A stretch of DNA of 64,000 nt, from the NCBI GenBank assembly GCA_044223005.1, contig JBGAML010000002.1, positions 266,457-330,456 on the forward strand, in the 5' to 3' direction. A model generated the notes under the pieces. That model was not told the origin of the DNA. It worked only from the letters and a program-made list of their open reading frames with translations, and did not search any database. This stretch comes from Candidatus Eiseniibacteriota bacterium (lineage in GTDB: Bacteria; Eisenbacteria; RBG-16-71-46). Below, piece by piece: positions 28,972 to 44,734 of this stretch. Numbering within the stretch: the first letter of the stretch is position 1; the number at the start of each line of letters is the position of its first letter. Both the position numbers and the translations under genes were made by a program.

Positions 28972-31137
28972 ATGGCTCCCCATCCCACTGCCGCCCGGCC
29001 GCGGTCCGTCGTGATGCAGGCACGACGACTCCCGCTCGCCGCACTCGCGCTCATGCTCGTGCCGATCGTCGCGCACGCGTACGACGCCCCCACGCACCAG
29101 GCCATGTCGATCGTGGCCGTGCGTCGCGCCGACTGCAAGGTCGACGACTACCTGAAGAACGAGCTGCTCGTGCCGCAGGGCATCGAGACCACCGCCGGCA
29201 GCAACTCGTTCGTCGATCGGCTGCAGGATGGCGCGCGCGACGAGGACGAGCAGTCGACGCCGCGCCCGCGCAACCACTTCTACAACCCGATCACCGGGAA
29301 CGGGCTCGACGACATCTTCTCGGGCAACTCTTCGCTGCAGTGGGCGTGGGACCATCCGGACAACCAGCAGGACTGGCACGCCGCGCGCGACGCGTACTTC
29401 CGCTTCTTCACCGCCGGCACCAAGGCCGAGCGCACGCAGGCGATGGGAGATGCGTTCTGGGACCTGGGCCACGTGATCCACCTGATCCAGGATCTCGGCC
29501 AGCCGCAACACGTCCGCAACGACGCGCACATCACGCACTTTCCCGGCGCGCCTTTCGAGGACTACTGCAGCATTCGCTACCGCACACCCGAGACCGTGGG
29601 CTCGCTCGGCACCGCGCCGATTCCGCAGCTGGTGCCCGGGCCCGGGCCGTTCGCGAACATCCCGAACAGCTTCTCGGGCTTCTGGGATTCGGGCCAGTAC
29701 CGCGGCCAGGACGACTTCGCCGGCTTCACGCTGGCCCCCGGCCTCGCCGAGTACTCGAACGCGTACTTCATCACCGACGACACCATGTTCGGCACGTTCC
29801 AGCTGGGCGTGCTGCCGCGCGCGGGCATGCCGCCGCTGCAGGTGCGGCTGCGGACGCCGTTCTTCTCGACCAACCACTCGACGAGCGCCAACCATCGCTT
29901 CAACGGCCCGCGGCTCGCCGACACGGACCTCGCGAGCTTCTACCCGGCCACGACGAGCAGCGTGACCGTCTACCGCGGCGGCGAAGGCACCACGGGCGCC
30001 ACGCACTACCTGACGCTCAACACGCGCGGCCCCGGCGGCGCCATCATCCACACCACGCGCAACATCTGCCTGCTGAACGGCGACAACTACATCGGCTTCG
30101 ACGACAACACCTACCAGGCGTACGCCGAGCAGCTGGTGCCGATGGCCGTCAGCTATTCCGCGGGCCTGCTCAACTACTTCTTCCGCGGCAAGCTCGACAT
30201 CGAGGTGCGCTGGATCGAGGCGCAGCAGCAGTACCAGATCACGGTCACCAACCGCTCCGGTGCCGATCTCGGCGCGGGCCAGTGGTCGCTCTACCAGGAC
30301 GACGGCAGCGACAACCGCAGCTCGGTCGGCGCCTCGTTCAACTATCCCGGCACGCTCGCCGACGGCGGCAGCTTCACCGGCACGTTCGCCGCGGCCGAAC
30401 GAAGCGGCGGCTACACGCTGGTCTTCCACGGCACGCTGGGCGACGAGAAGGACTGGGCCGTGGTCGGCAAGCGCTTCGAACTCGTGCGCGTGCTGATCAC
30501 GTGGGATCCGAAGTCGGACCAGGACCTCTACATGTGGGGCCCCGACGGCTCGCTGATCGGCTACTACAGCAAGGTGAGCTCGTACGGCGAACTCGACAAC
30601 GACAACATCGGCGGCACCGGGCCCGAGAACATCACGCTCAAGGACATGCGTGAGGGCAACTACCAGTTCATGATCGATTACTACCGGGACTGGTGGAAGG
30701 AGTACTACTACGACCAGCCCTCGAACACGTGCATCCCGTACGACACGCCGATCAACTACCCGGAGGACTACGGGTACGATCCGTGTTTCGAGCCCACGCC
30801 GATCACGGTGACGGTGAAGACGTATCACAACGCCGCCTCGCCGGTGCGCACGCAGACCTTCACCGCGGTGTGGCCCGACTACGGCTACTACCTGCCCGGC
30901 TCCGGCCTGGGTGAGGGGCAGTTGGACGACGCGTGGGCCGTGGTGCAGACGGTCACGGTCGACGCCGATCGCAACGTGACGATCACCGGCACCACGCCGC
31001 AGACCGCGCCGCCGCCGGCGACGCGTCCGTACGTGCGCGCCGTGGCCGCGTCACCGCCACCGTCCAAGGCCGGTGTGCCCACGACGGTGAACCTGACCAG
31101 CAAAGCCATGGCCGCGAAGCCGACGGGGGTGAAGTGA
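28972..31137 (+). CDS. Secreted zinc-dependent phospholipase C / S1-P1 nuclease superfamily protein with a C-terminal beta-rich domain
   Basis: GGAGG lies 5 nt before the ATG. There is a signal peptide. The motifs YDAPTHQAMS, NHFYNP and HVIHLIQDLGQPQHVRND match the H...D..QP.H zinc-ligand pattern of PLC / P1 nuclease. Confidence 0.6.
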   Translation: MAPHPTAARPRSVVMQARRLPLAALALMLVPIVAHAYDAPTHQAMSIVAVRRADCKVDDYLKNELLVPQGIETTAGSNSFVDRLQDGARDEDEQSTPRPRNHFYNPITGNGLDDIFSGNSSLQWAWDHPDNQQDWHAARDAYFRFFTAGTKAERTQAMGDAFWDLGHVIHLIQDLGQPQHVRNDAHITHFPGAPFEDYCSIRYRTPETVGSLGTAPIPQLVPGPGPFANIPNSFSGFWDSGQYRGQDDFAGFTLAPGLAEYSNAYFITDDTMFGTFQLGVLPRAGMPPLQVRLRTPFFSTNHSTSANHRFNGPRLADTDLASFYPATTSSVTVYRGGEGTTGATHYLTLNTRGPGGAIIHTTRNICLLNGDNYIGFDDNTYQAYAEQLVPMAVSYSAGLLNYFFRGKLDIEVRWIEAQQQYQITVTNRSGADLGAGQWSLYQDDGSDNRSSVGASFNYPGTLADGGSFTGTFAAAERSGGYTLVFHGTLGDEKDWAVVGKRFELVRVLITWDPKSDQDLYMWGPDGSLIGYYSKVSSYGELDNDNIGGTGPENITLKDMREGNYQFMIDYYRDWWKEYYYDQPSNTCIPYDTPINYPEDYGYDPCFEPTPITVTVKTYHNAASPVRTQTFTAVWPDYGYYLPGSGLGEGQLDDAWAVVQTVTVDADRNVTITGTTPQTAPPPATRPYVRAVAASPPPSKAGVPTTVNLTSKAMAAKPTGVK

Positions 31138-32915
31138 TGAACGCCCTGAATCGCTTCTTCCGCGCCGCCACCGATGTGCGCCGCAGCTCGTGGCTGCTCG
31201 CCTCGGTGGTCGTGGTGCTCACGGTGACGCTCGCCGTCGTCGCGAACGCCGCCAACTTCGCCATGACGCTCGCCACCCCGAACCAGACCGCACCTCCCGG
31301 CGGCAACGCCCTCTACACGGGCAGCATCGTCAACACCTCCGGGCACGCGATCACGCTCGACATCCAGGTCGAGTTCCTGACCAGTCCCGAATCCGAACTC
31401 TGGACGCTCGATCTCGCGCCCGAGTTCCTCGCGCTGCAGTTGGAGCTTCCCCCGGGCGGCTACAGTGGGCCGCTCTTCACCGCCGGTTGGGACCCCTCGC
31501 TCACCGGCGGGCTCTACGGCGTCGGCCGGCTCGTGCTGACCGATGCGAACGGAGTGGACGGCGTCGCCGCGGCGTCGTTCACGCTGAGCACGCCGGGCGC
31601 GGGGCCGTTCTGCACGAGCCAGGTGAACTTCCGCGGGCTCGAGAACTCGGTCGGGATCCTCGACTCGCTGGACCACCCGATCGTCGCCAGCGCGAATCCC
31701 GTGAACGGCAGCGTGTCGGTGGGCACCACCGACGGCCACTTCTGGAAGACCGCGCTGATCGCGAAGAACGTGGGCTCGCACGCTTCGCCGTCACTGGTGG
31801 TGGACGCGTTCCAGGCGCCGCACGTCGCCTACTACGACGAAGTGGCGGGCAGGCTCGTGCACGCGACCAACCCCGGCACCGGCTGGGTGAACGAGACGAT
31901 CGACAACGCCTCGGGCGCGGGACGCTCGCCGTCGCTGGCGATCGACCAGCTGGGCCAGCTGCACGTGAGCTACTACGACTCGGCGAAGCGGCAGCTGCGC
32001 TACGCCGCGCGCAGCAACGGCTCGTGGACGCCCGAGGTGGTGGACACGCTGCCCGGCGCTGGCGTGCGTTCGGCGCTGGCCACGGACGAGATCGGGCAGC
32101 CGTACATCGCCTACTACTCCGCCGACGAAGGCAAGCTGCGCCTGGCGCACCGTGCCGGCAACGGCTGGACGACCGAGGTGGTGGACGGCACCGGGCACAC
32201 CGGCCTGGCGCCGTCGCTGCGCTACCACACCGGCACGTTCTGGGTGTCGTACGGCGACTCGACGCCCGGCCACCACGCGCTGCGAATGGCGAGTGGTGTA
32301 CCCGGCGCGTGGAGCGCGGCCACGGTGGATTCGGGCGGGGATTGCGGATCGGCGTCGGTGATGACGCTGGACGGCTTCGACAATCCGCGCATCGGCTACT
32401 GGGATGCCGCGACGCAGACGCTGCGCTACGCGAGCAAGACCGGCCCCGTGTGGATCCTGGAGGACGTGGCCGCCAACTCGGCCGGTGCGATCTCGCTGGC
32501 GCGCGGCACGCACGACGAGCCCGTGTTCAGCTTCGCCGGCAGCACCGACGGCCTGATCCACCTGAGCACGGTGGGCCAGTGCCCCGTCACGATTCCGCTG
32601 TTCGGCGAGCCCACCGGCACCGACGCCACGCTGCCCACGGAGTTCGCGGTGATGGCCGCGCGCCCCAACCCGTTCCGGAGCACGAGCGTGATCACGTTCG
32701 CGAGCCCCGTGCGGGCCGAAGGCTGGGTGCGCGTCTACGACGCCGCCGGCCGCGTGGTGGCCGAACCCCTGCACCGCTTCATCGAGGCCGGCATGACGCA
32801 GGTCACGTGGGACGGCGCGGACCGGTCGGGTCGCAAGCTGCCCGCGGGCACGTACCTCGTACAGGTGCGAGTCGGCGCGAACGTGAAGTCGGCACGGGTG
32901 ACGCTGATTCGGTGA
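31137..32915 (+). CDS. Secreted repeat protein (YY-x-L-YA-x-NG-W-x-E-VVD repeats) with a T9SS-type CTD
   Basis: Its ATG overlaps the previous stop (ATGA). The signal/TM is SSWLLASVVVVLTVTLAVVANA. There are four ~45-aa repeats. The C-terminal RPNPFRSTSVITFASP...GTYLVQV is the CTD. Confidence 0.65.
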   Translation: MNALNRFFRAATDVRRSSWLLASVVVVLTVTLAVVANAANFAMTLATPNQTAPPGGNALYTGSIVNTSGHAITLDIQVEFLTSPESELWTLDLAPEFLALQLELPPGGYSGPLFTAGWDPSLTGGLYGVGRLVLTDANGVDGVAAASFTLSTPGAGPFCTSQVNFRGLENSVGILDSLDHPIVASANPVNGSVSVGTTDGHFWKTALIAKNVGSHASPSLVVDAFQAPHVAYYDEVAGRLVHATNPGTGWVNETIDNASGAGRSPSLAIDQLGQLHVSYYDSAKRQLRYAARSNGSWTPEVVDTLPGAGVRSALATDEIGQPYIAYYSADEGKLRLAHRAGNGWTTEVVDGTGHTGLAPSLRYHTGTFWVSYGDSTPGHHALRMASGVPGAWSAATVDSGGDCGSASVMTLDGFDNPRIGYWDAATQTLRYASKTGPVWILEDVAANSAGAISLARGTHDEPVFSFAGSTDGLIHLSTVGQCPVTIPLFGEPTGTDATLPTEFAVMAARPNPFRSTSVITFASPVRAEGWVRVYDAAGRVVAEPLHRFIEAGMTQVTWDGADRSGRKLPAGTYLVQVRVGANVKSARVTLIR

Positions 32916-32944: not shown

Positions 32945-32993
32945 GACGCCCGCGCGGCGGTCCGGAAGTCCGGGCCGCCGCGCGGGGGCGTTT
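32945..32993. terminator. Intrinsic terminator after the 28972..32915 gene pair
   Basis: It is a ~20-bp imperfect GC stem (CGCCCGCGCGGCGGTCCGG...CCGGGCCGCCGCGCGGGGGCG) followed by TTT. Confidence 0.5.
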
Positions 32994-33483
32994 GGGCCCA
33001 AACCCAAGCCGGTAGGATAGTGCGTCGCACCGTCACCCACCCGCTGTTGGGCGTCCTTATCATCTTCGGGTAGAGTCCCCGCGGCACTGCCAACTACTCC
33101 AACGGCCGCCCGATCTCGCGATGCTCCCAAGACTCAGGGCGATCATTCATACGACCCCGAGGATTTCGGTCGCATGTCGCCCCCAGTCACGGATGGCCGC
33201 AAGCCCAAAGGGCCTATTCGCCCCAAGCCAGCCGCAGCGATGGTCGCCCCCGGCGGCGTCGAGCGAAAATGTCGCCGCGTTGGCTTCATGATTTGGTCGT
33301 CTGACGCGGTCTCCAATCGACCGCCTCGTGGCCATGAGAGGCACCTTCTGGAGGCGGGGCAGATCTTGCCAGTGTGCAGGGGCGACGGGGCATCGCAAAC
33401 GCAAGGTAGCGCTACATTGCCATGCGGCGGTGGGCAAACGGGCTCCGCTCGACTTCCCGGCGGCCCTACGCGGAGGCGTCGCC

Positions 33484-35598
33484 ATGCCCCCGTCCTCTGA
33501 TGTGCTGCTCGACCTCATTGTCGATGCGATAAGGCGAGTGAGGTCAATACGCCAAGATTCGCCCATTGTCTGGCTCGTGATCCCCGTGCTTGCCTGGCTG
33601 TTTGATGCACAGGGCCTCTTTTCAAATCTTCTGAGTGTAATGGAAAACAAGAGGCAAGCCCGAGCTGCGCGAACACTTCTAGCTCACATATACACTGCCG
33701 ACGATATCGATCGCTATACACGACATTATGTCAAACAGCACTATCTGCAGCACGCACCAACGCACTATGACGAGCCACGCGATGCGCGCCAAGGCGTCAA
33801 GGGGGAGCTGTTCGAATACGTGGATCGCTTTGTGACATCGAAGCAACCAGACGCCAAATTTCTGATGATCTTGGCAGACAGTGGCACCGGCAAGTCGTCA
33901 TTCTGCATAAACTATGTCGTCAAGCGCTCGAGACGTCCTCGCCCTGGATGCAAGTGGATATTGGATTCGCTCGGCGACCCCAAATGTCTCGATCGGGTTC
34001 AGGGTGTCGCCGAGCCGGAGAACGCCATTCTGGTCCTTGATGGTCTGGACGAGGATCCCGCGGCACTCGGCCGATTCCTGGAGCGGTGGGCGGAGATCGA
34101 ACGGGCCACCATTCGCTTCCGCCGTGTCGTGGTCACCTGCCGACTACAATTCATTACGACGGGTTCCCAGTTGCCTCATAGGTCGATTGTGGTTCGTCGT
34201 GCTGGCCCTCAGGCACTGGACGATGACCGTAGGTTCTCAGTCGACCACGTGTATATCTCGCCGCTCAGAGACAGGCAAATCAAGCAGTTCATAGACATGA
34301 GCGTACCGTTCTGGCGAAGGAGGGAGCGCAGCGGCGCGATGCGCCTGGTGAAGGCTATCCCACTGCTTAGCGTGCGCCCTATGTTGCTTGGCTATCTGCC
34401 GCACCTCGCCAAACAAGATCCTGACAGAAAATGGAGTACAACGGAGTTGTATAGAGAGTGTATTGAGCAGTGGCTTGCGCGAGAAGTCGATGCAGATGAT
34501 GCGGAATCCGCCGAGAGAAAGCGGCGCCAGTTGTTGGAGCTATCCATGCAGATTGCAGTGAGTATGTGCGTGCCATCGCACGGCTTGTCCTACCGGGCGG
34601 TTGACATAGCGACGACGCCGGCAGATGGCGGTACTCCGATTCCAACTGATGCAGACGCTGCGGGCGGCCAAAGGGCTGCTCACGCGCTGGAGATGCCGCT
34701 CAGAGATGTTGGTCGTAGTCTGTTGGTGCCCGCGAGCGGTGGTGGATTCAAGTTCGCGCATCGCTCGTTTGCCGAGTATTTTGTTGTAGAGGCCGCGCTT
34801 TCCGGCGAGCGGAGGGCGTGGGGGCAAATGAGCGACATGATGAGACTGTTCTTGAGTGAGCGTCTCGAAGCCTATTGGCCTGAGTTGTCGCGTGGCGTGA
34901 GGCTTCAAGGAACTGCGTGGACCCTGGGAGGCGTGGCCGACAATGCAAAGCTGGACATAGTCGTGCCTGAAGATGCGCGCTACGTACTGCTAAGTAGGCT
35001 GCTGGAGTGTGCAGATGCGCTCGGAAGGGCTCATGAGCAATATTATTCCAGCATAAGATTTGCGTGGGGTGACGAGAAGGTGCGCGGGACAGCAGACAAT
35101 GCGGTGCAGGGCGGGGCGGTGAGTATCAGCGGGCGGGCAATCGGAAGCGACTGGTATAGATTCGAGGAAGAGGCGAGCCCTCGCAATGGAAATGAGCCGA
35201 CATTCTGGGTGGATGTGCTGCCACCGCGATGTGAATATGGCTCTGGTACGTTCCAAGTTGGTTGGAACTCTGCGGGTCGTGTGCGACGTGCAATGTTGTA
35301 TGAGTCCGAGGTGGAGTTGCTTGTATCGGGGAGTCAGAAGACGGCAAAGCGTGAGGTGGTTAGGTGGCGGCGAGTAGGGGTCGCTGAACTCTTGTGCAGT
35401 AATGCTCTGGTGTTTGGCGCGTTGCGCGAGAGAACTGCGGCGGGGATGGCGAGCTTCGAGGCCGGAACATTGCGATTCAAGGTGCGAGGCACGGGGCAGG
35501 CGGTCGTCATGAAGGGCGCAACATGCGAAGGTATGGTGTGGGATCCCAGTTCGGGGTCGTATGAGATTCAGCTGTCGGACCCTTCCCACGCCGAGTGA
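33484..35598 (+). CDS. NACHT/STAND-family P-loop NTPase (bacterial NLR-like; candidate antiviral STAND)
   Basis: Walker A is FLMILADSGTGKSSF (aa ~134-139). Walker B is AILVLDGLDE (aa ~181-190). The sensor-1-like motif is RRVVVTCRLQ. The N-terminal region is ~120 aa with one hydrophobic helix (PIVWLVIPVLAWLF). A ~400-aa Trp-rich C-terminal domain is unassigned. GGAGG lies 8 nt before the ATG. Confidence 0.7.
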   Translation: MPPSSDVLLDLIVDAIRRVRSIRQDSPIVWLVIPVLAWLFDAQGLFSNLLSVMENKRQARAARTLLAHIYTADDIDRYTRHYVKQHYLQHAPTHYDEPRDARQGVKGELFEYVDRFVTSKQPDAKFLMILADSGTGKSSFCINYVVKRSRRPRPGCKWILDSLGDPKCLDRVQGVAEPENAILVLDGLDEDPAALGRFLERWAEIERATIRFRRVVVTCRLQFITTGSQLPHRSIVVRRAGPQALDDDRRFSVDHVYISPLRDRQIKQFIDMSVPFWRRRERSGAMRLVKAIPLLSVRPMLLGYLPHLAKQDPDRKWSTTELYRECIEQWLAREVDADDAESAERKRRQLLELSMQIAVSMCVPSHGLSYRAVDIATTPADGGTPIPTDADAAGGQRAAHALEMPLRDVGRSLLVPASGGGFKFAHRSFAEYFVVEAALSGERRAWGQMSDMMRLFLSERLEAYWPELSRGVRLQGTAWTLGGVADNAKLDIVVPEDARYVLLSRLLECADALGRAHEQYYSSIRFAWGDEKVRGTADNAVQGGAVSISGRAIGSDWYRFEEEASPRNGNEPTFWVDVLPPRCEYGSGTFQVGWNSAGRVRRAMLYESEVELLVSGSQKTAKREVVRWRRVGVAELLCSNALVFGALRERTAAGMASFEAGTLRFKVRGTGQAVVMKGATCEGMVWDPSSGSYEIQLSDPSHAE

Positions 35599-35652
35599 GG
35601 ACGCGAGTGAGCGTGACCCGATCTCGTGGACACCTTTCGAAAGGGGTCTACG

Positions 35653-35904
35653 ATGTCCAGCATGTCCAAGAACGGTGGTCGCCGCCAGCGGCGAGTGTTC
35701 AGTGTGGAGTTCATGGCGGGCGTGGCGGCAGCTGTCGATACGTTGCTGGGCGTAACAGTGCGCGACCTTCGCGCGAGCGTTCTGCACGAGAACGACACTG
35801 CCGAATGTGAGCTCGCTGCAGTTCGGCGGCTTGATGACAGCTACTCGAGTCTTCGACGAGAAATCGACCGCGCGACAGGAATCGGCCAACTGATGCCGAA
35901 GTAA
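35653..35904 (+). CDS. Small Arg-rich protein (83 aa) downstream of the NACHT NTPase
   Basis: AAAGGGG lies 6 nt before the ATG. The N-terminus MSSMSKNGGRRQRRVF is basic. It sits within the low-GC islet on the same strand, 55 nt after the NTPase stop. Confidence 0.4.
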   Translation: MSSMSKNGGRRQRRVFSVEFMAGVAAAVDTLLGVTVRDLRASVLHENDTAECELAAVRRLDDSYSSLRREIDRATGIGQLMPK

Positions 35905-35945
35905 GCGCGGACTCGGCTTCAGGTATCTTCGAACCCGCCTTCGCT

Positions 35946-37742
35946 CTAATTCCTCAGCGTCACCTGCCGCACCCAGACGCCCCGCACGCCCTGCTCCTGG
36001 CCGGCCAGTGCTCGGAACTTGCCGAACACCTCCGTGCCGCGTGATGCGCTGCCAGCCGACACCGGCAGGTCCGCGACGCCGCCGACGCCTCGCAGCTTGT
36101 CCAGCGGGGCGGCGCCGACGCGGGCGTAGCTGATCGGGCGGTCGGGCGAGACCGCGGGCAGCGTTGCGAGCTCGGCTTCGAGTTCGGGGACGGGTTGTGG
36201 GCTCGCCACCACGAGGAAATGCTCGTGGCCGCCGCGGCTGGTCACGACCCAGCCGCTTTCCTTGCCGGCGCGCGTGCCGGGCATTCGCACCGTGGCGCCG
36301 GCGGCGATCGGGTTCTTCTGGTCGAACAGTGGTTGCGGGAACAGCAGGTACGATTCGCCCTTGTCGTCGGCGTTGAGCACGTAGACGTACGCGGGCTGGC
36401 TCGCGCGGAACTCCAGCAGCAGCCGATCTCCGGGCTTCACGGCGTCGCCGTCCACCAGCGCGGTGGTCGAGCCGGCGTCGCCTCGCATCAGCGTCGCGCT
36501 CACGTCGTATGCGACCGGCGCCACTGCCGCAAGCGAAGGTGCGGGCGTCGGCACCTCCGTCGTCCGCGGCCGCAGGCGCGGCCACGCGAGCAGCGCGGCG
36601 ACGGCGACCACCGCCCCGATCGCCAGCGGCAGCGCGAGCTGGCCGCGTCGCGACGCGGTTACCGCGCGCGCGCCGCCCATCGTCCCGGCCGCGCTGCCCG
36701 CGACGGTCGCGTCACGCGCTGCCGCGCCCGCGTCGCGCGCGCCGACCGCCCCGGCGCCCGCATCCGCCACGCACGCCTCCAGCGCCGCGCGCGCGTCGGT
36801 CGCGCTCGCGAACCGCGCCGCCGGAGCTGCCGCCATCAGCCGCTCGATCGCGGCGACCAGCGCTGGCGGCGCACCCGGGGCGTCGGCGGCCAGCGCCACC
36901 GCGGGCCCCGCGGCGGCCTCCGCACGTAACGCCTCCAAAGAAGAAGCCGCGAACGGCGCGCGCCCGGTCAGCGCGCGCCGCAGCGTGACGCCGAGCGCGT
37001 ACAAGTCATCCGAAGCGCACGCGACAGCGCCAAGAAGCCGCGCGGGCGACATGTACGCGGGAGTGCCCGAAAACGGCCGCGCAAGCCCGGCAGCAGAACC
37101 CGCATGCTCCCCGAGCCCGAAGTCGACGAGCACGAAGTGGCCGTCGTCGGTGGCGATCACGTTCGCGGGCTTCACGTCGCGGTGCAGCGCTCCGGCGCCG
37201 TGCACGGCGGCCAGCGCGCGCGCCATCTCGGCGCCCAACTGCGCCACGCGCGCGGGCGCGAGTGCTCCCATGCCGAGCAGCACTTCGAGCGAGGGGCCGC
37301 GCAGGTACTCCATCCAGAACCCGGCGCGGCCGTCGTGTTCGGCGGCGCCGTGCACGGTGACCACGTGCGGATCGCGCACCCGCGCCAGCGCGCGTGCTTC
37401 GTCGAGCATGGTGCCGACGGGCGCTCCGGTGCGTGCGAGCTTCAAGGCGACCTCGCGCCGCAGCGAGGGGTCCCAGGCGCGATACACGCTGCCGTCGGCG
37501 CCTTCGCCGGCCTTCTCCAGCAGCAGCAGCTCGCCCCAGCGGCCGCCCTCGAACAGGCCGCCGTCGTCGGCGCCGTGCTGCAGCGAGCGGTGAAAGTCGG
37601 CGACGCGCGAGAGGTCGTGCAGCGTCCGCACGTGCTCGCGCTGCTTCGCGTCGGCGGCGCCTTCGGCGCGCGCCCAGTCGGTGGGCTCACCGTTGGCGAT
37701 CGACTCGAGCAGTTCCTGCAGTGCGCGTTCGTCAGGCGTCAT
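35946..37742 (-). CDS. Serine/threonine protein kinase with a TM segment and an extracytoplasmic C-terminal domain
   Basis: The kinase motifs are GEGADGSVYRA, VALKL, HRDVKPANV, DFGLG and SPAR. A TM helix LALPLAIGAVVAVAALLAW is present. Its start overlaps the upstream ECF sigma stop by 11 nt. Confidence 0.8.
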   Translation of the reverse strand: MTPDERALQELLESIANGEPTDWARAEGAADAKQREHVRTLHDLSRVADFHRSLQHGADDGGLFEGGRWGELLLLEKAGEGADGSVYRAWDPSLRREVALKLARTGAPVGTMLDEARALARVRDPHVVTVHGAAEHDGRAGFWMEYLRGPSLEVLLGMGALAPARVAQLGAEMARALAAVHGAGALHRDVKPANVIATDDGHFVLVDFGLGEHAGSAAGLARPFSGTPAYMSPARLLGAVACASDDLYALGVTLRRALTGRAPFAASSLEALRAEAAAGPAVALAADAPGAPPALVAAIERLMAAAPAARFASATDARAALEACVADAGAGAVGARDAGAAARDATVAGSAAGTMGGARAVTASRRGQLALPLAIGAVVAVAALLAWPRLRPRTTEVPTPAPSLAAVAPVAYDVSATLMRGDAGSTTALVDGDAVKPGDRLLLEFRASQPAYVYVLNADDKGESYLLFPQPLFDQKNPIAAGATVRMPGTRAGKESGWVVTSRGGHEHFLVVASPQPVPELEAELATLPAVSPDRPISYARVGAAPLDKLRGVGGVADLPVSAGSASRGTEVFGKFRALAGQEQGVRGVWVRQVTLRN

Positions 37743-38334
37743 GTCGCATCGCCTCCGCCAGTCGTCCGAGCGCGCGCGTCACGGCCATGCGCACGGCATC
37801 CCTGCTGTCGCGTCCGGTCATCACGCGGATCTCCTCGTAGTTCCAGTCGAGCTCCACCTTGAGGTGGAGCAGGTGCTGGTCCTCGGGCGAGAGCGTCGTG
37901 AACGCGCGTTCGTATCGCTGCGCGAGGTCGGCGCCGATCGCCAGTTCCAGCGGCGAGGGCCCGGCATCGGGGAGCGAGTCGGGCACTTCACCGGGTCCGG
38001 GACGCCGGTCGGCGTATCGGATCCCATCCCGAATACGATTGAGCACGGCGGAACGAACGTAGGCCTCGAACCCGCCGGGGCCGCGCAGTTCGACCCGGTC
38101 CAGGTTCTCGAACGTCCGCAGCAACGTCTCCTGCACCAGGTCGACGGTGTCGAACAGGCTCCGCGCGCGCGCCGGGATCCGGCCGCTGGCCCAGCGGCGC
38201 AGGCGCGGCAAGTAACGCGCGGCCAGCGACTCCAGCGCATTGCGGTCGCCGTCCTTGGCGCGGCGCAGCAAGCTGGTCGTCGACTCGAGCGCGTCGCCCG
38301 GCGAGGGCGGCAATGGAGCGGATGGAGGGCTCAT
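37732..38334 (-). CDS. ECF-family sigma-70 factor co-transcribed with the Ser/Thr kinase
   Basis: Regions 2 and 4 are present (LESLAARYLPRLRRWASGRI; FTTLSPEDQHLLHLKVELDWNYEEIRVMTGRDSRDAVRMAVTRALGRLAE). Confidence 0.8.
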   Translation of the reverse strand: MSPPSAPLPPSPGDALESTTSLLRRAKDGDRNALESLAARYLPRLRRWASGRIPARARSLFDTVDLVQETLLRTFENLDRVELRGPGGFEAYVRSAVLNRIRDGIRYADRRPGPGEVPDSLPDAGPSPLELAIGADLAQRYERAFTTLSPEDQHLLHLKVELDWNYEEIRVMTGRDSRDAVRMAVTRALGRLAEAMRHDA

Positions 38335-38507
38335 GGCGTCTCGGGGTCCCGGGGTGCTTCCGGCTGGCCGTTCATTGTAGAGGGCGCCACGCCTTGCTGC
38401 GAAGAACTGATCGCGAGCCGGGCCTTGCCAGTGCTAGCTTGCCCGGATTCGCCGCCCGGGCCGGCGTTTCCCGGCAGGCCCGATCATTCCCCGGAGGACC
38501 GCCCGTG

Positions 38508-41500
38508 ATGCGCCTGGCCTGCCTCGCCGCACTGTTCGCGCTGCTGCTGGGTGGCTCGTTCTCACCGTCGGCGGCGCGTCCCAAGGCTCCCGCGGGGCGG
38601 GACACGGTGGTCGTCCAGGCGGAGTGGGACAGCCTGATCGCGCTCCAGTCGGCGCGCCGGTACGCGGTGGTCGACAGCGTGGCGCAGGCGCTGATCGCGC
38701 GGATCGAGGCGTCGCCGCACCCGGACACGCTCGACCTCACGCACGCGCTCTCGTTCGTCGCGGCGGCGCGCTACTCGCAGCGGCTGGTCAACGACGGCAA
38801 GGCGGGCGACGCGATCGAGCGGCTGATCACGCTGCGCGCCCGGCACGTGCCGCCGGGCGAGAAGCTCATGGTGTGGGCCGAGGGCTGGGCGGCGCGTTAC
38901 TTCGACGACGTGGGCCAGCACGACAAGGCGTACGAGCACGCGCGAGGGTTCCTGGACCAGCTCCGGGCGCAGTCGCCCATGGACACGCTGCGCGTCGCGG
39001 CGGCGACCCGCCGCATGGCGCTGGCGCTGCACTTCCTGGGGCGCGAATCCGAGGCGCGCGAGCAGTTCCTGCGCGCGATCGAGATCGCGCGCTCCAAGAC
39101 GATCCCGACGTGGGAAGAGCAGCTCGCCACGCTGGGCGAGTACGGCCAGTACCTGAGCGATCTGGGCGAGTTCGACGCGGCGCGCGACTACCTGAACCGC
39201 GCGCGAGAGATCGGCGAGCACCACAAGGAGGCTGCCGCCCAGCTCGACGAGGTGTTCGGGCGGCTCACCACGCTCGAGCAGCGCGTGGGCAACCTCGCCG
39301 ACGCGGTGGACCTGGCGCAGCGCTCGTACGAGCTGACCCGCGTGCGCTTCGGCGAGAATGCGGCGCCGACGCTGCGGGCGCGCGTGCGGCTGGCGTACCG
39401 GATCTCCGACCTGGGCGATCACGCCGAGGCGCTGCGGCGGCTGCGCGAGATCGCGCCGGTCATGGCGGAGCAGATCGGCCGCACCAACCCGCAGGTGATC
39501 AACGTGCGCATCTCGGCGCTCGAGGACGCTGCTGCGGTGGGCGACACGACCGGCATGCGCGCCGAGCTGGCGGCGCTCTGGCCGATCGTCATGTCGACGG
39601 CGACGCCGCTCTCCAACGCCACCTACCTGCACGCGATGGGCTCGGTGGTCGCGCGATTGCGCGGCGACGAACGCGCCGCATGGGATTCGCTCGAAGTGGC
39701 GGTGCGCGGCATCTGGCCGGAACGCACGCGCTGGGGCGGCCGCCTCGCCGATCTCGCGAGCGAGGAGGCGGTGCTGCTGGCGGGGCCCGGCGACCGCGAC
39801 CGCGCGGAGCAGCTCTTCGCGCGCATCGACACGCTGACGCGCGAAACGAGCGCGCGCGCGGCGGCGGAGTGGCCGCACTGGCTCGAGTCGCGCGCGGGAC
39901 TCGAGGCGCGGCTGGGGCTCGCGGACTCGGCGTGGACGCACGCGCTGCAAGCGGCATCGCTGCAGCGCGAACGGCTTCGCTACCAGGCCTACGCGCTCTC
40001 CGACCACCAGGCGGTGCAGCTGGCCGAGCAGTCGGTCACCTCGGGCGACGTGCTGGACCAGCTGGCGAGCGCGGGCGATCCGGCGCGCGCGGCGGCAGCG
40101 TGGGAGCAGCAGATCCGCTGGCGCGGGCTGGTGCGCGAAGAGGTGACGTCGCGGCGCCTCGCGGCGTGGCAGGCGGCGGACACGGCGGTGGCGGGAGCGC
40201 ATGCGCGCTGGCTCGCGGCGCAGCGTTCGCTCGCGCAGCTCGTGGTCTCGGGTGCGGCGCACCCCGACGATCCGGCTACGGCGGAGCGCTTCGCGCAGGC
40301 GCGCGCGGCGGCCGACGCGGCCGAACAGCAGATGGGCCGCGCGGTGGGCGGCGCTTCGGTCGACACGGTGACGCTGACGCACGTGCTCTCGCACCTCTCG
40401 CCGCGGCAGGCGCTGGTCGGCTTCGCCACCGCGGGCACGGGTCGCGACGCGCGCACGCTGGGCGCGTTCGTCGCCGTGGCGGGCGGCACGCCGCGCTGGG
40501 TGACGCTGGGCGACGAGGGCGCGCTGGGCGACGCGATCGCGGCGTGGACGGCCGCGCTCGCGACGCCACCGTCGGGCGCGCCGGCCGCGATCCGCGCGGC
40601 GGAGCGGGCGTGCCGCGCGAAGGGTGCCGTGGTGCGCGAGAAGCTCTGGGCGCCTGTGCTGCGCGCGCTGGGCGACGTGACGGACGTGTTCGTGGTGCCC
40701 GAGGCCTCGACGTGGAACGTGCCGTGGCTCGCACTGCCGGTGGGCGAGGCGGGCTACGTGGCCGACGCGCCCTACGTGGTGCACCTGCTCAACGCCGAGC
40801 GCGAGCTGCTGCGGCCGTCGCTGCCCGCGAAGGGCGGGCTGCTCGCGGTGGGCGATCCGGATTTCGACCTGACGCCGGCGGCGGCCGACACGAGCCACGC
40901 CGCGACCCGCTCGGGTGTGACGGGCTGGCCGTGCGCCGACGGACGCCCGGCGCGGCTGGAATCGCTGCCCGCGGCGCGTGCCGAGGTGCAGGCGATCGCG
41001 GCGCTCTGGCCCGTGCGCGCGGGCGCGTCCGAGCTGCGCGTGGGAAATCGCGCCGACGAAGCGGACTTCAAGCGCGAGGCGCCGGGCCGCGCGGTGATCC
41101 ACCTCGCGACGCACGGCATCGTGCTCAGCGACACGTGCGTGGCGGTCGGCAGCACGGCGCTGCGCGGTGTGGGCGGTGTGGCCGCGCTCGCCGCGCCGTC
41201 GCAGTCGCCGAAGCGCGCGCCGGGCGCGAGCGCCGCCGCGCCGCGTGCCTCGGCGCCGCGACAGGTGCCGGGGCACGTGTGGCTCGCGTTCGCGGGCGCC
41301 AACCACGCGGCCGACGGCGCGCACGACGAGAACGAGGGCCTGCTTACCGCCGAGGAGGTGGCGACGCTCGACCTCGCGGGCACCGACTGGGTCGTGCTCT
41401 CGGCGTGTCATTCGGGCGAGGGCGAGACGTGGCTGCGCGAGGGCCAGTCGGGCATGCGCCGCGCGTTCCACCTTGCGGGCGTGCGCACGGTGATCGCGAG

Positions 41501-41687
41501 CCGCTGGGCGGTGGCCGACGCCGCGACGCGCGAGTGGATGGTGGCGCTTTATCGCGGGCGCTCGCACGGGCTCGCGGCCGCGCCCGCGGTTCGCGCGGCG
41601 GCGCGTGAGGTGCTGGCCCGGCGCCGCACCGACGGCCGCTCGACGCACCCGTTCTTCTGGGCGGGTTTCGAGGCCTCCGGGCGGTAG
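38508..41687 (+). CDS. Secreted TPR-repeat protein with a C-terminal CHAT (caspase-like) domain
   Basis: The signal peptide is MRLACLAALFALLLGGSFSPSAA. It has long TPR-like helical repeats. The CHAT region carries the His/Cys dyad context HLATHG...LSACHSGEG. It lies divergent from the ECF sigma/kinase operon. Confidence 0.75.
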   Translation: MRLACLAALFALLLGGSFSPSAARPKAPAGRDTVVVQAEWDSLIALQSARRYAVVDSVAQALIARIEASPHPDTLDLTHALSFVAAARYSQRLVNDGKAGDAIERLITLRARHVPPGEKLMVWAEGWAARYFDDVGQHDKAYEHARGFLDQLRAQSPMDTLRVAAATRRMALALHFLGRESEAREQFLRAIEIARSKTIPTWEEQLATLGEYGQYLSDLGEFDAARDYLNRAREIGEHHKEAAAQLDEVFGRLTTLEQRVGNLADAVDLAQRSYELTRVRFGENAAPTLRARVRLAYRISDLGDHAEALRRLREIAPVMAEQIGRTNPQVINVRISALEDAAAVGDTTGMRAELAALWPIVMSTATPLSNATYLHAMGSVVARLRGDERAAWDSLEVAVRGIWPERTRWGGRLADLASEEAVLLAGPGDRDRAEQLFARIDTLTRETSARAAAEWPHWLESRAGLEARLGLADSAWTHALQAASLQRERLRYQAYALSDHQAVQLAEQSVTSGDVLDQLASAGDPARAAAAWEQQIRWRGLVREEVTSRRLAAWQAADTAVAGAHARWLAAQRSLAQLVVSGAAHPDDPATAERFAQARAAADAAEQQMGRAVGGASVDTVTLTHVLSHLSPRQALVGFATAGTGRDARTLGAFVAVAGGTPRWVTLGDEGALGDAIAAWTAALATPPSGAPAAIRAAERACRAKGAVVREKLWAPVLRALGDVTDVFVVPEASTWNVPWLALPVGEAGYVADAPYVVHLLNAERELLRPSLPAKGGLLAVGDPDFDLTPAAADTSHAATRSGVTGWPCADGRPARLESLPAARAEVQAIAALWPVRAGASELRVGNRADEADFKREAPGRAVIHLATHGIVLSDTCVAVGSTALRGVGGVAALAAPSQSPKRAPGASAAAPRASAPRQVPGHVWLAFAGANHAADGAHDENEGLLTAEEVATLDLAGTDWVVLSACHSGEGETWLREGQSGMRRAFHLAGVRTVIASRWAVADAATREWMVALYRGRSHGLAAAPAVRAAAREVLARRRTDGRSTHPFFWAGFEASGR

Positions 41688-41800
41688 CCGCGCGGCGGCT
41701 CGGCCCCCGTGTTCGCTCCGGGCGGGCGGGACGTAGGGAGAACGCGAGCCCATCCGCGCGCGGTGCGTGGGTGGTCCGACCCACCCTCGAGGAGCGCCCC

Positions 41801-44551
41801 ATGCGCCGCCGCATCGCCGCAGCGATCCTGCTCACCGCCTGCTGCTGTGCCCCGCTGCCCACGTTCGCCCAGTGCGAGCGGTGGCTGCCCGGCCCGTTCG
41901 ACAATGGCACCGCCAGCAGCGTCGTCGGCAAGCTCTATTGCTCGACGTCGTGGGATCCGGACGGCGACGGGCCGCTGTTCCCGCGCCTCGTGGTGGCGGG
42001 CAGCTTCACCTCGATCGGCGGCGTCGCGACCCACAACGTCGCGTGGCGCGATCCCGCGACGGGAACGTGGAACGCGTTCGGTCCGGGGATCACCTTCACC
42101 GTCCGCGCGCTCGCGGTGCTGAACGGCCAGGTCGTCGCGGCCGGCGATGGCGACACGAATCCCGCGGCCGACGACGACAACGTCCTGCGCTGGAACGGCG
42201 TCTCGTGGGCGAGCCTGGGCGGTGGTACGGCGACGGGCAACGTGAACGCGCTCGCGGTCTGGAACGGCGAGCTCTACGCGGGCGGCTACTTCGTCGCGAA
42301 TCCGTCCTGGGCCGACCCCGTCAGCAACATCGGGCGCTGGGACGAGGCGACCGCGACGTGGCAATCCGTGGGCGGCGGCACGGACGGCACGGTGTCCGCG
42401 CTGCACGCCTGGCAGGGCGTGCTCTACGCGGGCGGCTCGTTCCACCACGCGGGCGGGGTGGCCGCGAACTACATCGCGCGCTTCGACGGCACGTGGCACG
42501 CGCTGTCGAGCGAGCCGAAGTACTACGTCAACGACCTCGAGGGCGGTTACAACGGCGAGCTCCTCGCGGCCACGTCGTTCACCGGCGCGAATGGCGCGAC
42601 GACCCCGGCCGTCGGGGGCTGGAACGGCTTCAGCTGGAACGTGCGGGCGGTGCAGGCGGTGCCGAGCGGCATCTTCCTGACCTGTGGCATCTACAATGGT
42701 TCGATCTACGCCGGCGGATCGTTCGAATCGCTCGATGGGATGTTGGCCGGAGGCGTGGCGCGATGGGACGGCACGCGCTGGGTGTCGGTCGGCCAGGGGG
42801 CCGTGAATCACGCGGCGGTGATCTACGACCTGGCACCCTACAACGGCGAGCTGCTCGCGGTGGGCGACGTCCAACAGCTCGACTTCATTCCCGTGGGCGG
42901 CATCGGCCGCTGGAACGGCACGGAATGGGGAGCGTTCGGCGGCTATTCGGCGCTGAGCGTGGCGGCGATGACGCCGTACAACGGCCGCCTGGTCGCGGGC
43001 GGGTACTTCCATGCGTACGCGGGCACGGGACCGTCCGTGTCGAACATCGGCGCCTGGCGAGGCACGACGGGGCTCTCGGCGTTCGGCACGGGGACGGACG
43101 CCGACGTCACGGCGCTGTGCGCCTACACGTCCGGAACCCTGGTGAATCCCAGCTACGAGCTGGTCGCGGGTGGGTACTTCACCGTCGCGGGCGGCCTCGC
43201 CTGCAATCACGTCGCGCGCTGGATCGAGAAGACGACCATCATCACGCCTCCGGCGTGGGCGCCGATGGGCCAGGGGTTCAACGCGGCGGTGAGCGCGCTC
43301 GAGCGCTACAACAGCGCGCTCTATGCCGGCGGCAGCTTCACGGCCTCGGGCGCCACGCCGCTCGGCCACATCGCGCGCTGGAACACGGCGGCCAGCAGCT
43401 GGGAATCGGTCGGCAACTTCGACGGCTCGGTCGAGGCGCTCAAGGTCTGGAACGGCCAGCTCTACGCCGGCGGCTCCTTCACCAGCGTGAACGGCGTCCC
43501 GACCGGTGGACTCGCGCGCTGGAACGGCTCGACGTGGTCCGCATGCGGCGGCGTCTTCTCCACCGGGTACGTGCATGCGCTCGAGGTCTACAACGGCCAG
43601 CTCGTGATCGGCGGGGAGTTCACCGGCGTGCCGGGCAGCCCGAACCTCGCGACGTGGGACGGCACCAGCATCTCCACGCTCGGCTCGGGCGGCACGAATC
43701 GCGCCGTCCACGCCCTGCGAGCGGCTGGGACCCGGCTCTACGTGGGCGGCGAGTTCCTGCTCGCCGGCGGCCTGTCGTGCCAGCACCTCGCCTGGTGGGA
43801 CGGGACGTGGCACGCGATGAGCGGCGCCACCAACACCGTGGAGTCGATGTGCCTCTACAACGGTGAGCTGCACGTGGGCGGCAGCTTCCAGTACGTGGAC
43901 GACGGCCTGCTCCGCGCTCCGACGTGGGCCCGCTACACCGAGACCGGCGTGCCGTGGTTCGCGACGCAGCCCTCGTCGCGCAACGTCGCGCCGGGGACGA
44001 ACGTCACGTTCACCGCGTCGCCGCCGCCGGGCTACAGCGGCTACTCGACGCAGTGGTACCGCAACGGCGTCCCGCTCGCTGACGGGTTCACGGGACATGG
44101 TTCGATCGTGTCGGGCGCGCACACGAGCACGCTCGAGATCGACTTCACCAACGGCCAGACCGACTGGGGGAAGTACCACGCGGAGATGAGCAACAGCTGC
44201 GGCAGCGTGCAGAGCGTGGACGCGACGCTGTCGTTCGACGGCTACGCCGACGTGGCGCCGGGCGGCACGCTCCAGACCGCGTTCGCCGCCATGGGCCCCA
44301 ACCCGAGCCGCGGCGCGACGACGCTGCAGTACTCGCTCGCCCGCGACGCCGACGTGCGCGTGCGCGTGCACGACATCGCGGGCCGGCTCGTGTGGTCGCG
44401 CGAGCTCGGGCACGTGGCGGCGGGCCGCCACGCCGCGGAGTGGGACGCCCGCGACGCGGGTGGCGACCGCGTGCGTGCGGGGCTCTACCTCGTGACGCTC
44501 GAGGTCGACGGCGCGCGGCTCGCGGCGCGGCGGCTCGTGGTGACGAGGTAG
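41801..44551 (+). CDS. Large secreted repeat (beta-propeller-like) protein with an Ig-like domain and a T9SS-type CTD; paralogue of 224..2980
   Basis: GAGGAG lies 6 nt before the ATG. The signal peptide is MRRRIAAAILLTACCCAPLPTFA, followed by the QCERWLPGPFDNGT motif. There are >12 repeats (YAGGSF....GG.....IARW.G..W). The C-terminal PNPSRGATTLQYSL...GLYLVTL is the CTD. Confidence 0.75.
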   Translation: MRRRIAAAILLTACCCAPLPTFAQCERWLPGPFDNGTASSVVGKLYCSTSWDPDGDGPLFPRLVVAGSFTSIGGVATHNVAWRDPATGTWNAFGPGITFTVRALAVLNGQVVAAGDGDTNPAADDDNVLRWNGVSWASLGGGTATGNVNALAVWNGELYAGGYFVANPSWADPVSNIGRWDEATATWQSVGGGTDGTVSALHAWQGVLYAGGSFHHAGGVAANYIARFDGTWHALSSEPKYYVNDLEGGYNGELLAATSFTGANGATTPAVGGWNGFSWNVRAVQAVPSGIFLTCGIYNGSIYAGGSFESLDGMLAGGVARWDGTRWVSVGQGAVNHAAVIYDLAPYNGELLAVGDVQQLDFIPVGGIGRWNGTEWGAFGGYSALSVAAMTPYNGRLVAGGYFHAYAGTGPSVSNIGAWRGTTGLSAFGTGTDADVTALCAYTSGTLVNPSYELVAGGYFTVAGGLACNHVARWIEKTTIITPPAWAPMGQGFNAAVSALERYNSALYAGGSFTASGATPLGHIARWNTAASSWESVGNFDGSVEALKVWNGQLYAGGSFTSVNGVPTGGLARWNGSTWSACGGVFSTGYVHALEVYNGQLVIGGEFTGVPGSPNLATWDGTSISTLGSGGTNRAVHALRAAGTRLYVGGEFLLAGGLSCQHLAWWDGTWHAMSGATNTVESMCLYNGELHVGGSFQYVDDGLLRAPTWARYTETGVPWFATQPSSRNVAPGTNVTFTASPPPGYSGYSTQWYRNGVPLADGFTGHGSIVSGAHTSTLEIDFTNGQTDWGKYHAEMSNSCGSVQSVDATLSFDGYADVAPGGTLQTAFAAMGPNPSRGATTLQYSLARDADVRVRVHDIAGRLVWSRELGHVAAGRHAAEWDARDAGGDRVRAGLYLVTLEVDGARLAARRLVVTR

Positions 44552-44734
44552 GGCAGCGGGGCCGCGCGGCGGGCAGGCTGCGCGTGAGGCGAAGCGAGGC
44601 GGGCCGGGACGCGACGAGGCGCTCCGGCCCGCGGCGTTTCGGGTGCGAACGGCGTCTCGTGAAGGAGTACGATCGGTGCGCCGAAAACGAGCGGCATCGT
44701 GTCCGACGTGCGCCCATCCCGCCCCGGAGGCCCC

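Follow-up and report, generated by a model that had tools for sequence, protein, structure and literature searches.

The window analysed here, a 64,000-nt stretch of contig JBGAML010000002.1 (positions 266,457 to 330,456, forward strand; GenBank assembly GCA_044223005.1) of a Candidatus Eiseniibacteriota bacterium, contains an islet of low G+C content at ~33000-35945 (window coordinates are used throughout). We read this islet as a ~2.95-kb foreign insert carrying a single gene, which encodes a membrane-anchored, NLR-like STAND NTPase of the immune-receptor type, and we give this reading as a whole about even chances of being right. Its parts differ in strength: confidence is high that a STAND/NLR-like gene was acquired horizontally, moderate that its product is a conflict or immune sensor, and low for the step in which the membrane would serve as the point of effector action. 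A first-pass annotation of the same DNA had proposed a defence candidate acquired by horizontal gene transfer; the foreign composition, the STAND identity and the immune-like character of the clade to which the protein belongs speak for this proposal, whereas neither a known system model nor a conserved partner gene could be attached to it. A horizontally acquired candidate immune sensor is a reasonable description, albeit an unproven one, with a defence role that is circumstantial and drawn from the family level.

A compositionally atypical islet between two convergent host genes

With a mean GC content of 71% in the window, the region at ~33000-35945 is its most compositionally atypical part and its sole long low-GC run. 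Measured over 400-nt segments, GC is 0.52-0.62 across 33400-35999 compared to 0.68-0.82 in the flanks, and over 100-nt segments the shift begins at ~33000, reaches a minimum of 0.48 within the islet and stops at ~35950. The 2-kb segments starting at 33001, 33501 and 34001 have tetranucleotide z-scores of 5.0, 5.6 and 4.4, the three most deviant of the 64 kb, and GC at the third codon position (GC3) is 0.62 for the 704-aa open reading frame (ORF) of the NTPase and 0.67 for a smaller 83-aa ORF downstream, compared to 0.86-0.94 for five neighbouring genes. The drop in GC content noted in the first-pass annotation is thus confirmed. This composition argues strongly for a foreign origin.

On the left side, GC drops from 0.74 to 0.61 at 33000, and the sequence before this edge contains a G+C-rich hairpin (32949-32986, + strand; inverted repeat I7 with an 18-bp stem, 94% complementary, and a 2-nt loop) located 34 nt past the stop codon of the upstream host gene (30933-32915). 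This hairpin, taken as a terminator, closes the host-type sequence, and the left edge of the islet comes next. On the right side, as had been noted before, the islet adjoins the end of a Ser/Thr kinase gene; this gene is on the minus strand and its stop codon lies at 35946, with the distance to the right edge of the islet given as 41 nt. The islet therefore separates two convergent host genes at their 3' ends, a position where an insertion would be harmless. There are no tRNA genes in the 64-kb window and no repeats above 8 nt at the islet edges, which agrees with the earlier description of edges marked by neither.

A 25.6-kb Logan contig (L002, recovered again as L099) matches window positions 32978-45598 identically, so that neither the islet nor its right junction is an artefact of assembly; as this contig begins at 32978, inside the hairpin, the left junction is backed by the NCBI contig only. 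Exact sequence look-ups gave matches from the same strain only, a scan of genome contigs with the flanking kinase gave a best match of 40% identity and nothing closer, and both the NTPase and the adjoining kinase are singletons at 90% identity among 15 billion proteins.

The islet gene encodes a STAND NTPase with one N-terminal hydrophobic helix

The NTPase gene (33484-35598, + strand) is intact, has a GGAGG sequence 7 nt 5' of its ATG, and encodes a 704-aa divergent member of an uncurated clade which is nearest to Pfam nSTAND3/nSTAND5. The identical product is recorded by NCBI, on a contig of 337,867 bp, and in three independent Logan assemblies, and the codon-position GC pattern, with position 2 lowest, is steady along the whole ORF, from which it follows that the C-terminal part is also in the correct frame.

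Conservation was assessed in alignments of 150 and 64 relatives, domain architecture in 144 representatives and C-terminal tails in 203 proteins. The protein contains a Walker A or P-loop motif (ADSGTGKSS, residues 131-139, 33874-33900), a Walker B motif (LVLDGLDED, residues 183-191, 34030-34056), a sensor-1 strand (VVVTCR, residues 215-220, 34126-34143, modelled as a β-strand at 214-220) and a winged-helix motif (FAHRSFAEY, residues 424-432, 34753-34779), all encoded on the + strand. G134, G136, K137, D186, D189, E190, R220 and H426 are invariant in the 64 relatives, the first six also in the 150; K423 and E431 are likewise invariant in the 64, and C219 is at least 90% conserved. These findings agree with the P-loop NTPase motifs listed in the first-pass annotation, to which the winged-helix motif is an addition: its form in the family is KFxHRSxxEY, and the region is modelled with a predicted local distance difference test score (pLDDT) of 89-96. 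In NLRs, the winged-helix His contacts the bound ADP and is equivalent to the His of the plant MHD motif. The protein therefore has the sequence features by which Leipe et al. (2004) define the STAND superfamily, namely a P-loop NTPase in which Walker A reads GxxxxGK[ST], Walker B is hhhhD with acidic residues after it, and a sensor-1 Arg ends the next core strand, and also its NLR-like fold of nucleotide-binding, helical and winged-helix domains with a conserved His, as judged from the AlphaFold2 model, the fold matches and the invariant H426.

In the AlphaFold2 model, built with the family alignment, residues 60-470 have pLDDT > 90, and the best Foldseek matches in the PDB are NOD2, NLRC4, NLRP3, NLRP1, NLRP7/9 and Avs4 (E-values down to 1.5e-8), with structures of Avs3, Avs4 and Avs5 among the fold matches. 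Sequence searches of the PDB with the 704-aa protein or the family profile gave spurious or pentapeptide matches only. The Walker A had been described as textbook NACHT, but the protein is not recognised by the Pfam NACHT model (PF05729; gathering threshold 26.7 bits): the query has no match to it even at E up to 10, two of the 64 relatives match it, and one close relative reaches 16.4 bits. At E up to 10, the only Pfam matches of the query are 13-14-bit matches to nSTAND1, nSTAND_NTPase5 and NPHP3_N, and nSTAND3 (PF20720; gathering threshold 27.2 bits) is not matched either. Of the 64 relatives, 25 match nSTAND3 at E ≤ 1e-3 (best 1.3e-10); it is the nearest curated family, without formal membership. 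On the predicted model, the protein is an NLR-like NACHT-type module by fold, and it belongs to an uncurated clade by sequence.

The PADLOC-DB v2.0.0 check identified no known defence-system model, with zero families for the query at E up to 1; among the family members only mad8, PRTase_III-A, PDC-S60, GajB and AbiEi were matched, each in at most four of 64. Neither islet ORF was matched usefully in PHROGs. A regulator of the AfsR/MalT type, considered in the first-pass annotation as the finding that would speak against defence, is ruled out: there is no helix-turn-helix, SARP or other DNA-binding Pfam domain in the query, nor is there one among the 25 commonest domains of the 64 relatives. 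A Tmn/KAP-type NTPase was also rejected, with no match in PADLOC (a library which we take to include Tmn models) and with a single transmembrane (TM) segment that precedes the NTPase rather than being inserted within it.

This N-terminal hydrophobic, TM-like helix covers residues 27-53 (33562-33642, + strand; Kyte-Doolittle 19-residue mean of 1.85) and is the only such segment, in line with the single helix noted previously, while the predicted model has one long helix at residues 27-66. It is followed by the Lys/Arg-rich stretch ENKRQARAAR, and by the positive-inside rule the rest of the protein would be cytoplasmic. We infer that a single N-terminal helix sits in the inner membrane, with the NTPase module and C-terminal domain on the cytoplasmic side. 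The N-terminal 120 aa contain the TM-like helix and a conserved linker only.

At the other end of the protein is an orphan C-terminal domain (residues 466-704, 34879-35595, + strand), the presumed sensor, which has no detectable relatives, no repeats and no confident fold. All of the best 150 phmmer matches are confined to residues ~50-465, and none extends beyond ~490. Because the conserved STAND module reaches residue ~465, the unmatched tail is ~240 aa rather than the ~400 aa given previously; its description as Trp-rich is true only in a mild sense (2.9% Trp), whereas the absence of recognisable repeats was confirmed (internal repeat z-score 1.4). The tail did not match any of the 203 family tails (E > 1), and a word-indexed search with the C-terminal 249 aa only gave nothing, although this is a weak negative as the parent protein was not recovered either.

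A large clade with a constant module and variable tails

An exhaustive phmmer search against 1.84 billion representatives gave 1,606 clusters (at 50% identity), 356 of these at E ≤ 1e-30. This overturned the impression of a rare protein given by a word-indexed protein search, which found only two relatives and is unreliable for divergent proteins. The clade has a common plan of one N-terminal TM helix, the NTPase and then a hypervariable tail of ~250 aa. A hydrophobic segment precedes Walker A in 121/144 representatives, with Walker A at about residue 122, and the helix of relative P0002 is also followed by a Lys/Arg-rich stretch (HQQRRRKK). The query fits this plan in its TM helix, its Walker A position and its tail length, with 252 aa past the winged-helix motif compared to a family median of 249. 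The 203 tails comprise 52 pentapeptide-repeat tails, 31 Lcl_C/C-type-lectin tails, groups of 14 and 10, and 77 singletons, while other clade members have FGE-sulfatase, LRR, GAF or CBS domains; an orphan tail appears to be normal for the clade.

In 80 metagenomic family loci that were fetched and in which ORFs were called crudely, clade genes are nearly always single-copy, the sole true tandem pair being in locus L001. The clade gene is AT-richer than its flanks in 35/43 loci (mean −4.2 GC points, Wilcoxon P = 9e-6), whereas control long ORFs in the same loci differ from the flanks by +3.3 GC points, which indicates that the foreign signature is a trait of the clade and not of the locus in this window alone. 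Taken as a whole, the clade resembles an immune-receptor family in its hypervariable tails, in the hypermutation of these tails by diversity-generating retroelements (DGRs) in at least five loci, and in its defence neighbours.

Diversity-generating retroelements target the tails of some relatives

The most common neighbours within ~1.8 kb of clade genes are reverse transcriptases (RTs; 5-6) and bAvd proteins (5), and an RT is present in eight family loci. In five loci the variable repeat (VR) is formed by the last ~40-135 nt of the clade gene, with the template repeat (TR) beside avd/RT, and mismatches between TR and VR occur only at TR adenines (14/14 in L021, 15/15 in L035, 17/17 in L075, 15/15 in L057 and 4/4 in L048). 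By this pattern L021, L035, L048, L057 and L075 qualify as bona fide, active-looking DGRs which hypermutate the sensor end of the protein. In L042, 19 of the 28 TR/VR mismatches are at adenines. With regard to gene order, L035 (=L038), L075 and L042 have one TR for two targets, with a ~995-aa protein upstream and the clade gene downstream of the RT, and L048 and L021 have the classic order target-avd-TR-RT.

Defence and mobile-element neighbours of the clade

The sole plasmid member of the clade, locus L018 on Paraburkholderia sabiae plasmid pPs24235_2 (NZ_CP125298.1, 139996-154614), follows a complete BREX-1 operon (brxC-pglX-pglZ-brxL) and one small hypothetical gene. Further downstream in this locus are an AAA ATPase and an UvrD-like helicase. 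In locus L001 (5312-11899), three tandem STAND-Lcl_C genes adjoin phage small-ORF, terminase (GpA) and portal genes, and consist of one gene whose product, an nSTAND1 protein of 916 aa, has two Lcl_C domains, and of two clade members with Lcl_C tails, P0002 being the last; this looks like a receptor array at a prophage edge. The clade gene of locus L084 adjoins a full-length PD-Lambda-4_A gene (1215 bits).

The neighbours within 2.5 kb of the clade gene were collected from 59 loci, giving a set of 122 proteins other than RTs. Besides the PD-Lambda-4_A protein of L084, the strong and specific matches in this set are to PDC-M71A (1e-153), to a type I methyltransferase (2.4e-235) and to a CBASS cyclase (3.6e-182) accompanied by a phospholipase effector (3.2e-110). 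Strong and specific defence neighbours thereby number ~4-5 in the 59 loci, plus the plasmid BREX system; this count is a crude proxy for the measure used for defence-associated STAND clades by Lee et al. 2026, namely a clade-level enrichment of DefenseFinder systems within 5 kb at P ≤ 1e-4, or defence effector domains.

Evidence against an immune role, and other explanations

A number of observations weigh against an immune receptor at this locus. The 704-aa protein has no Pfam, NCBIfam or PADLOC match at E ≤ 0.01, and its close relatives score 17.9-19.2 bits on nSTAND3, below the 27.2-bit cut-off. No enzymatic effector is found at the N-terminus of the NTPase, and the orphan tail has pLDDT < 50 in the full-length model and 39 when modelled alone. 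The 64-kb window contains no RT ORF, Avd or TR, and no islet sequence is repeated in it, though a TR might conceivably act in trans from outside the window. Apart from DGR co-targets and contigs that are nearly identical, the clade genes have no recurrent neighbour family, and the right-hand neighbours of the islet are regulatory genes of host composition, not a defence island. The enrichment of defence neighbours is modest, with a binomial P of 0.002 to 0.17 depending on the background assumed, and neighbour matches to PD-T4-6, mad6, MkoA, DpdF and GajB were discounted as they reflect generic kinase or helicase domains: matches of the PD-T4-6 type are unspecific because the housekeeping-type kinase of the window itself scores 3e-56 through its kinase domain alone. 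Neither the 50,697 phage records nor IMG/VR contained a clade member, and among 72,556 plasmids there was only one. Finally, our literature search found no experimental test of any clade member.

Also to be counted here is the divergence of the query, which bears on whether this copy still works. At the 80 positions with a conservation of 85% or more, it keeps the family residue in 61 (76%, compared to a family median of 95%), the lowest of 150 members, and its changes include the replacement of LLNRD by LLVPA at 413-417 as well as D91A, F224I, G235I, R381D and E384T. Residues N415 and R416, which are 97-98% conserved in the family, are lost, while the catalytic residues are kept. Being the most divergent of the 150 and having lost near-invariant positions, the 704-aa copy is of uncertain activity.

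This would be expected of a decaying passenger, i.e. a gene that was once functional, possibly as a DGR target, was transferred and is now drifting, with its ORF still open as little time has passed. The orphan tail without a confident fold, the lack of DGR parts and of a partner gene, and the strongly unadapted codon usage are in keeping with decay as well. However, an ORF of 704 stop-free codons at ~58% GC is very improbable without selection (by a rough estimate ~1e-4 for the last 250 codons alone), all of the catalytic residues are preserved, as is the winged-helix His, the Shine-Dalgarno sequence is good and the codon-position GC pattern is kept. The NTPase module is furthermore modelled with pLDDT > 90, and orphan tails are normal for the clade (77/203). 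We therefore regard decay as unlikely, although by no means negligible.

Equally unlikely in our estimation is that the protein is a membrane STAND switch which functions outside anti-phage defence, for instance in kin/non-kin recognition, programmed cell death in a social bacterium or the sensing of endogenous or environmental ligands. Defence and non-defence clades are interspersed in the STAND phylogeny (PMC13581612), and a part in kin recognition has been suggested as well for STAND sensors diversified by DGRs (PMC10907252). Approximately 45 of the 59 loci have no strong defence neighbour, the clade is absent from phage records, and the gene in this window adjoins a cluster encoding an ECF sigma factor, a kinase and a CHAT protein. 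The flanks are host-like in composition and the islet is not, however, so that this adjacency is probably accidental. Hypervariable or DGR-mutated tails, an AT-rich foreign signature and a patchy distribution are typical of conflict genes and argue against such a switch, as do the strong defence neighbours in several loci.

Proposed mechanism and significance

In the general scheme for STAND/NLR proteins, an ADP-bound autoinhibited monomer binds its ligand through the C-terminal domain, exchanges its nucleotide and oligomerises, and induced proximity of the N-terminal domains produces the output. By analogy we infer a similar cycle for an immune receptor encoded by the islet, extending from topology, ligand sensing and oligomerisation to membrane output and an anti-phage role, provided that the 704-aa copy is active. 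At rest the protein would be an ADP-bound, autoinhibited monomer anchored by one helix in the inner membrane; a ligand would bind to the variable C-terminal domain, and nucleotide exchange followed by oligomerisation would then cluster the TM helices at the membrane, which could lead to permeabilisation or growth arrest of the abortive-infection type. Clustering of TM helices is the most likely output, since the protein lacks an enzymatic effector and an adaptor domain and its gene has no conserved partner. The clade itself behaves like a plug-and-play set of immune receptors, in which a constant TM-NTPase part is combined with a pentapeptide-repeat, a C-type-lectin (sometimes DGR-hypermutated) or an orphan tail.

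A more far-reaching version, which we put forward only tentatively and consider rather improbable, is that the clade constitutes a class of membrane-tethered bacterial NLRs, with the TM helix as the effector, an oligomeric pore and an exchangeable, sometimes DGR-hypermutated sensor; the sensor of this copy, with a fold that has no relative among ~15 billion proteins, would then have a trigger of its own.

If the clade does consist of immune receptors, these would represent a very simple bacterial NLR design, in which an NTPase switch is fitted with a TM helix and a swappable sensor. Such a design would join two subjects of current research, STAND pattern-recognition receptors and DGR-driven 'adaptive-like' diversification, and would offer a compact chassis to study the retargeting of NLRs by sensor exchange and hypermutation. 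We conclude that the 704-aa protein is a divergent NLR-like STAND NTPase and a candidate conflict-system protein, and that the clade is a more interesting object than this copy. The locus itself matters less: it is a single divergent copy without a DGR, in a high-GC bacterium that is poorly sampled, and is mainly of value for illustrating an orphan sensor domain and the clean horizontal insertion of a single gene.

The small downstream ORF

The second ORF of the islet (35653-35904, + strand) begins 54 nt past the NTPase stop codon and encodes an orphan basic protein of 83 aa (pI 9.2, 13% Arg, GC3 0.67). It is among the genes called on Logan contig L003 and has a plausible AGGGG ribosome-binding site, and an imperfect palindrome between the two ORFs (35624-35653, + strand; inverted repeat I8 with 19-nt arms, 89% complementary) overlaps the ribosome-binding region, with an RNA fold that is no better than shuffled sequences (z −1.06). 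No match was found in Pfam, PADLOC, NCBIfam or PHROG, and no homologue in a tblastn search of plasmids or among 15 billion proteins. A word-indexed search was also empty, which is a weak negative since the sequence itself is absent from that collection. There is no similar ORF in the other loci fetched, 80 of which are family loci. Two specific candidates were rejected: an Avd protein (hhalign probability 0.1% against the Avd profile, and no Pfam bAvd match at E up to 10) and a remnant of an IS3-type OrfA, considered for the N-terminal sequence RRQRRVFSVEF (no Pfam and no plasmid tblastn match). The 83-aa ORF may be expressed; it is not a conserved partner of the clade.

The first-pass annotation had joined the NTPase and the small Arg-rich ORF into one candidate system. 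The co-oriented ORF is present, but with no homologue, no counterpart beside the 80 family loci and no relationship to Avd, the two-gene system is unsupported. We consider it very improbable that the NTPase is a sensor working with an 83-aa regulator, toxin or antitoxin: the two genes share their orientation, the short 54-nt spacing and similar GC3 values (0.62 and 0.67), and the AGGGG site and the gene call on L003 are consistent with translation of the second, but there is neither a recurrent neighbour family around clade genes nor a domain match, and an ORF of 83 codons could be fortuitous. Least probable of all is a degraded DGR in which the NTPase is a former target, the 83-aa ORF an avd remnant and the TR and RT have been deleted, since despite a gene order (family gene, small ORF, then TR and RT) that would be the same as in the active DGRs L048 and L021, the small and basic nature of Avd proteins and the known decay of DGR loci (PMC10907252), the Avd comparisons were negative, there is no TR-like repeat or RT ORF in the 64 kb, and the tail is unlike the Lcl_C/FGE tails that DGRs target.

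Non-coding features of the islet and flanking genes

The non-coding leader of the islet (33000-33483, + strand) has a GC content of 0.61-0.71 with the GGAGG Shine-Dalgarno sequence at 33470-33474, and presumably holds the promoter and 5' untranslated region of the NTPase gene; a consensus scan of the leader found no σ70-like site and Rfam gave no match, and promoter and terminator scans together with Rfam likewise gave nothing meaningful. A perfect 14-nt inverted repeat (window 33147-33160 and 35551-35564, TCATACGACCCCGA and TCGGGGTCGTATGA) is expected ~0.07 times by chance in 6 kb; with one arm in the leader and the other within the 3'-terminal part of the NTPase ORF it does not bracket the islet, and it may be due to chance.

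The upstream host gene at 30933-32915 (+ strand) encodes a 660-aa FlgD_ig-domain protein, which has periodic repeats of 141 nt (47 aa) at 31817-32186 with the pattern HVAYYD...WT.EVVD, and these suggest a β-propeller-like domain. To the right of the islet, the cluster at 35946-41687 consists of the Ser/Thr kinase with DUF4384 (− strand), an ECF sigma factor (− strand) which overlaps the kinase by 11 nt, and a divergent gene for a 1,124-aa TPR-CHAT (caspase-like) protein (+ strand). Elsewhere in the window, two shorter patches have GC < 0.62 (30451-30900 and 46651-47350), and the ORF at 46135-47475 (+ strand) over the second patch resembles an antisense artefact.

Comparison with known systems

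A recent survey described 589 prokaryotic STAND clades, of which 198 are associated with defence and are interspersed with non-defence clades (Lee et al. 2026, PMC13581612), and it is this interspersion that makes the placement of a clade matter. The animal NLRs found as fold matches (NOD2, NLRC4, NLRP3) share 11-14% identity with the query, which has neither their LRR sensor nor a CARD/PYD adaptor, and is bacterial and membrane-tethered.

The Avs proteins have the STAND core in common with the query and, as Avs3, Avs4 and Avs5, appear among its fold matches; Avs5 carries a Pfam nSTAND3 domain (PMC13581612; bioRxiv 10.1101/2025.07.08.663546), and nSTAND3 is also the best, albeit weak, Pfam match of the clade. 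Some of the clade relatives are, like Avs, located in a defence-island context. However, the tripartite Avs proteins begin with an enzymatic effector (nuclease, SIR2 or protease) and carry a large, usually TPR-like sensor of at least 400 aa, whereas the query has only a TM helix at its N-terminus and a 240-aa tail without repeats. With this different architecture and no match to an Avs model in PADLOC, the protein is not recognisable as a system of the Avs type, the class mentioned in the first-pass annotation.

The closest tested analogue is probably bNACHT01, one of the short NACHT proteins with a fast-diversifying SNaCT C-terminus that protect against phage (Kibby et al., bioRxiv 10.1101/2022.07.19.500537). 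The likeness to this group, clade 14 of that study, is one of analogy. Like the query, bNACHT01 is encoded by a single gene, and it combines a NACHT-like fold with a short, fast-varying C-terminus without repeats and no recognisable enzymatic effector. The query differs by having no Pfam NACHT or PADLOC match and by the N-terminal TM helix conserved in its clade, and the anti-phage activity is that of bNACHT01 only.

The closest described entities are the DGR-diversified STAND-FGS/CLec proteins, which have been predicted to be antigen sensors that counter invaders (Kaur et al. 2021, PMC8195603; Dore et al. 2024, PMC10907252). The published cases use nSTAND1 or NACHT NTPases, models on all of which the clade remains below threshold, and the query differs from them in having no RT, Avd, TR/VR or recognisable C-type-lectin tail. 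They share with the clade the order of a STAND NTPase and then a ligand-binding domain at the C-terminus. The same papers (PMC8195603, PMC10907252) report that some of the targets have TM segments, and describe N-terminal extensions in which no known domain is recognised. The relatives of the query include DGR targets of their own (L021, L035, L048, L057 and L075, and less cleanly L042), in which the VR occupies the very 3' end of the gene.

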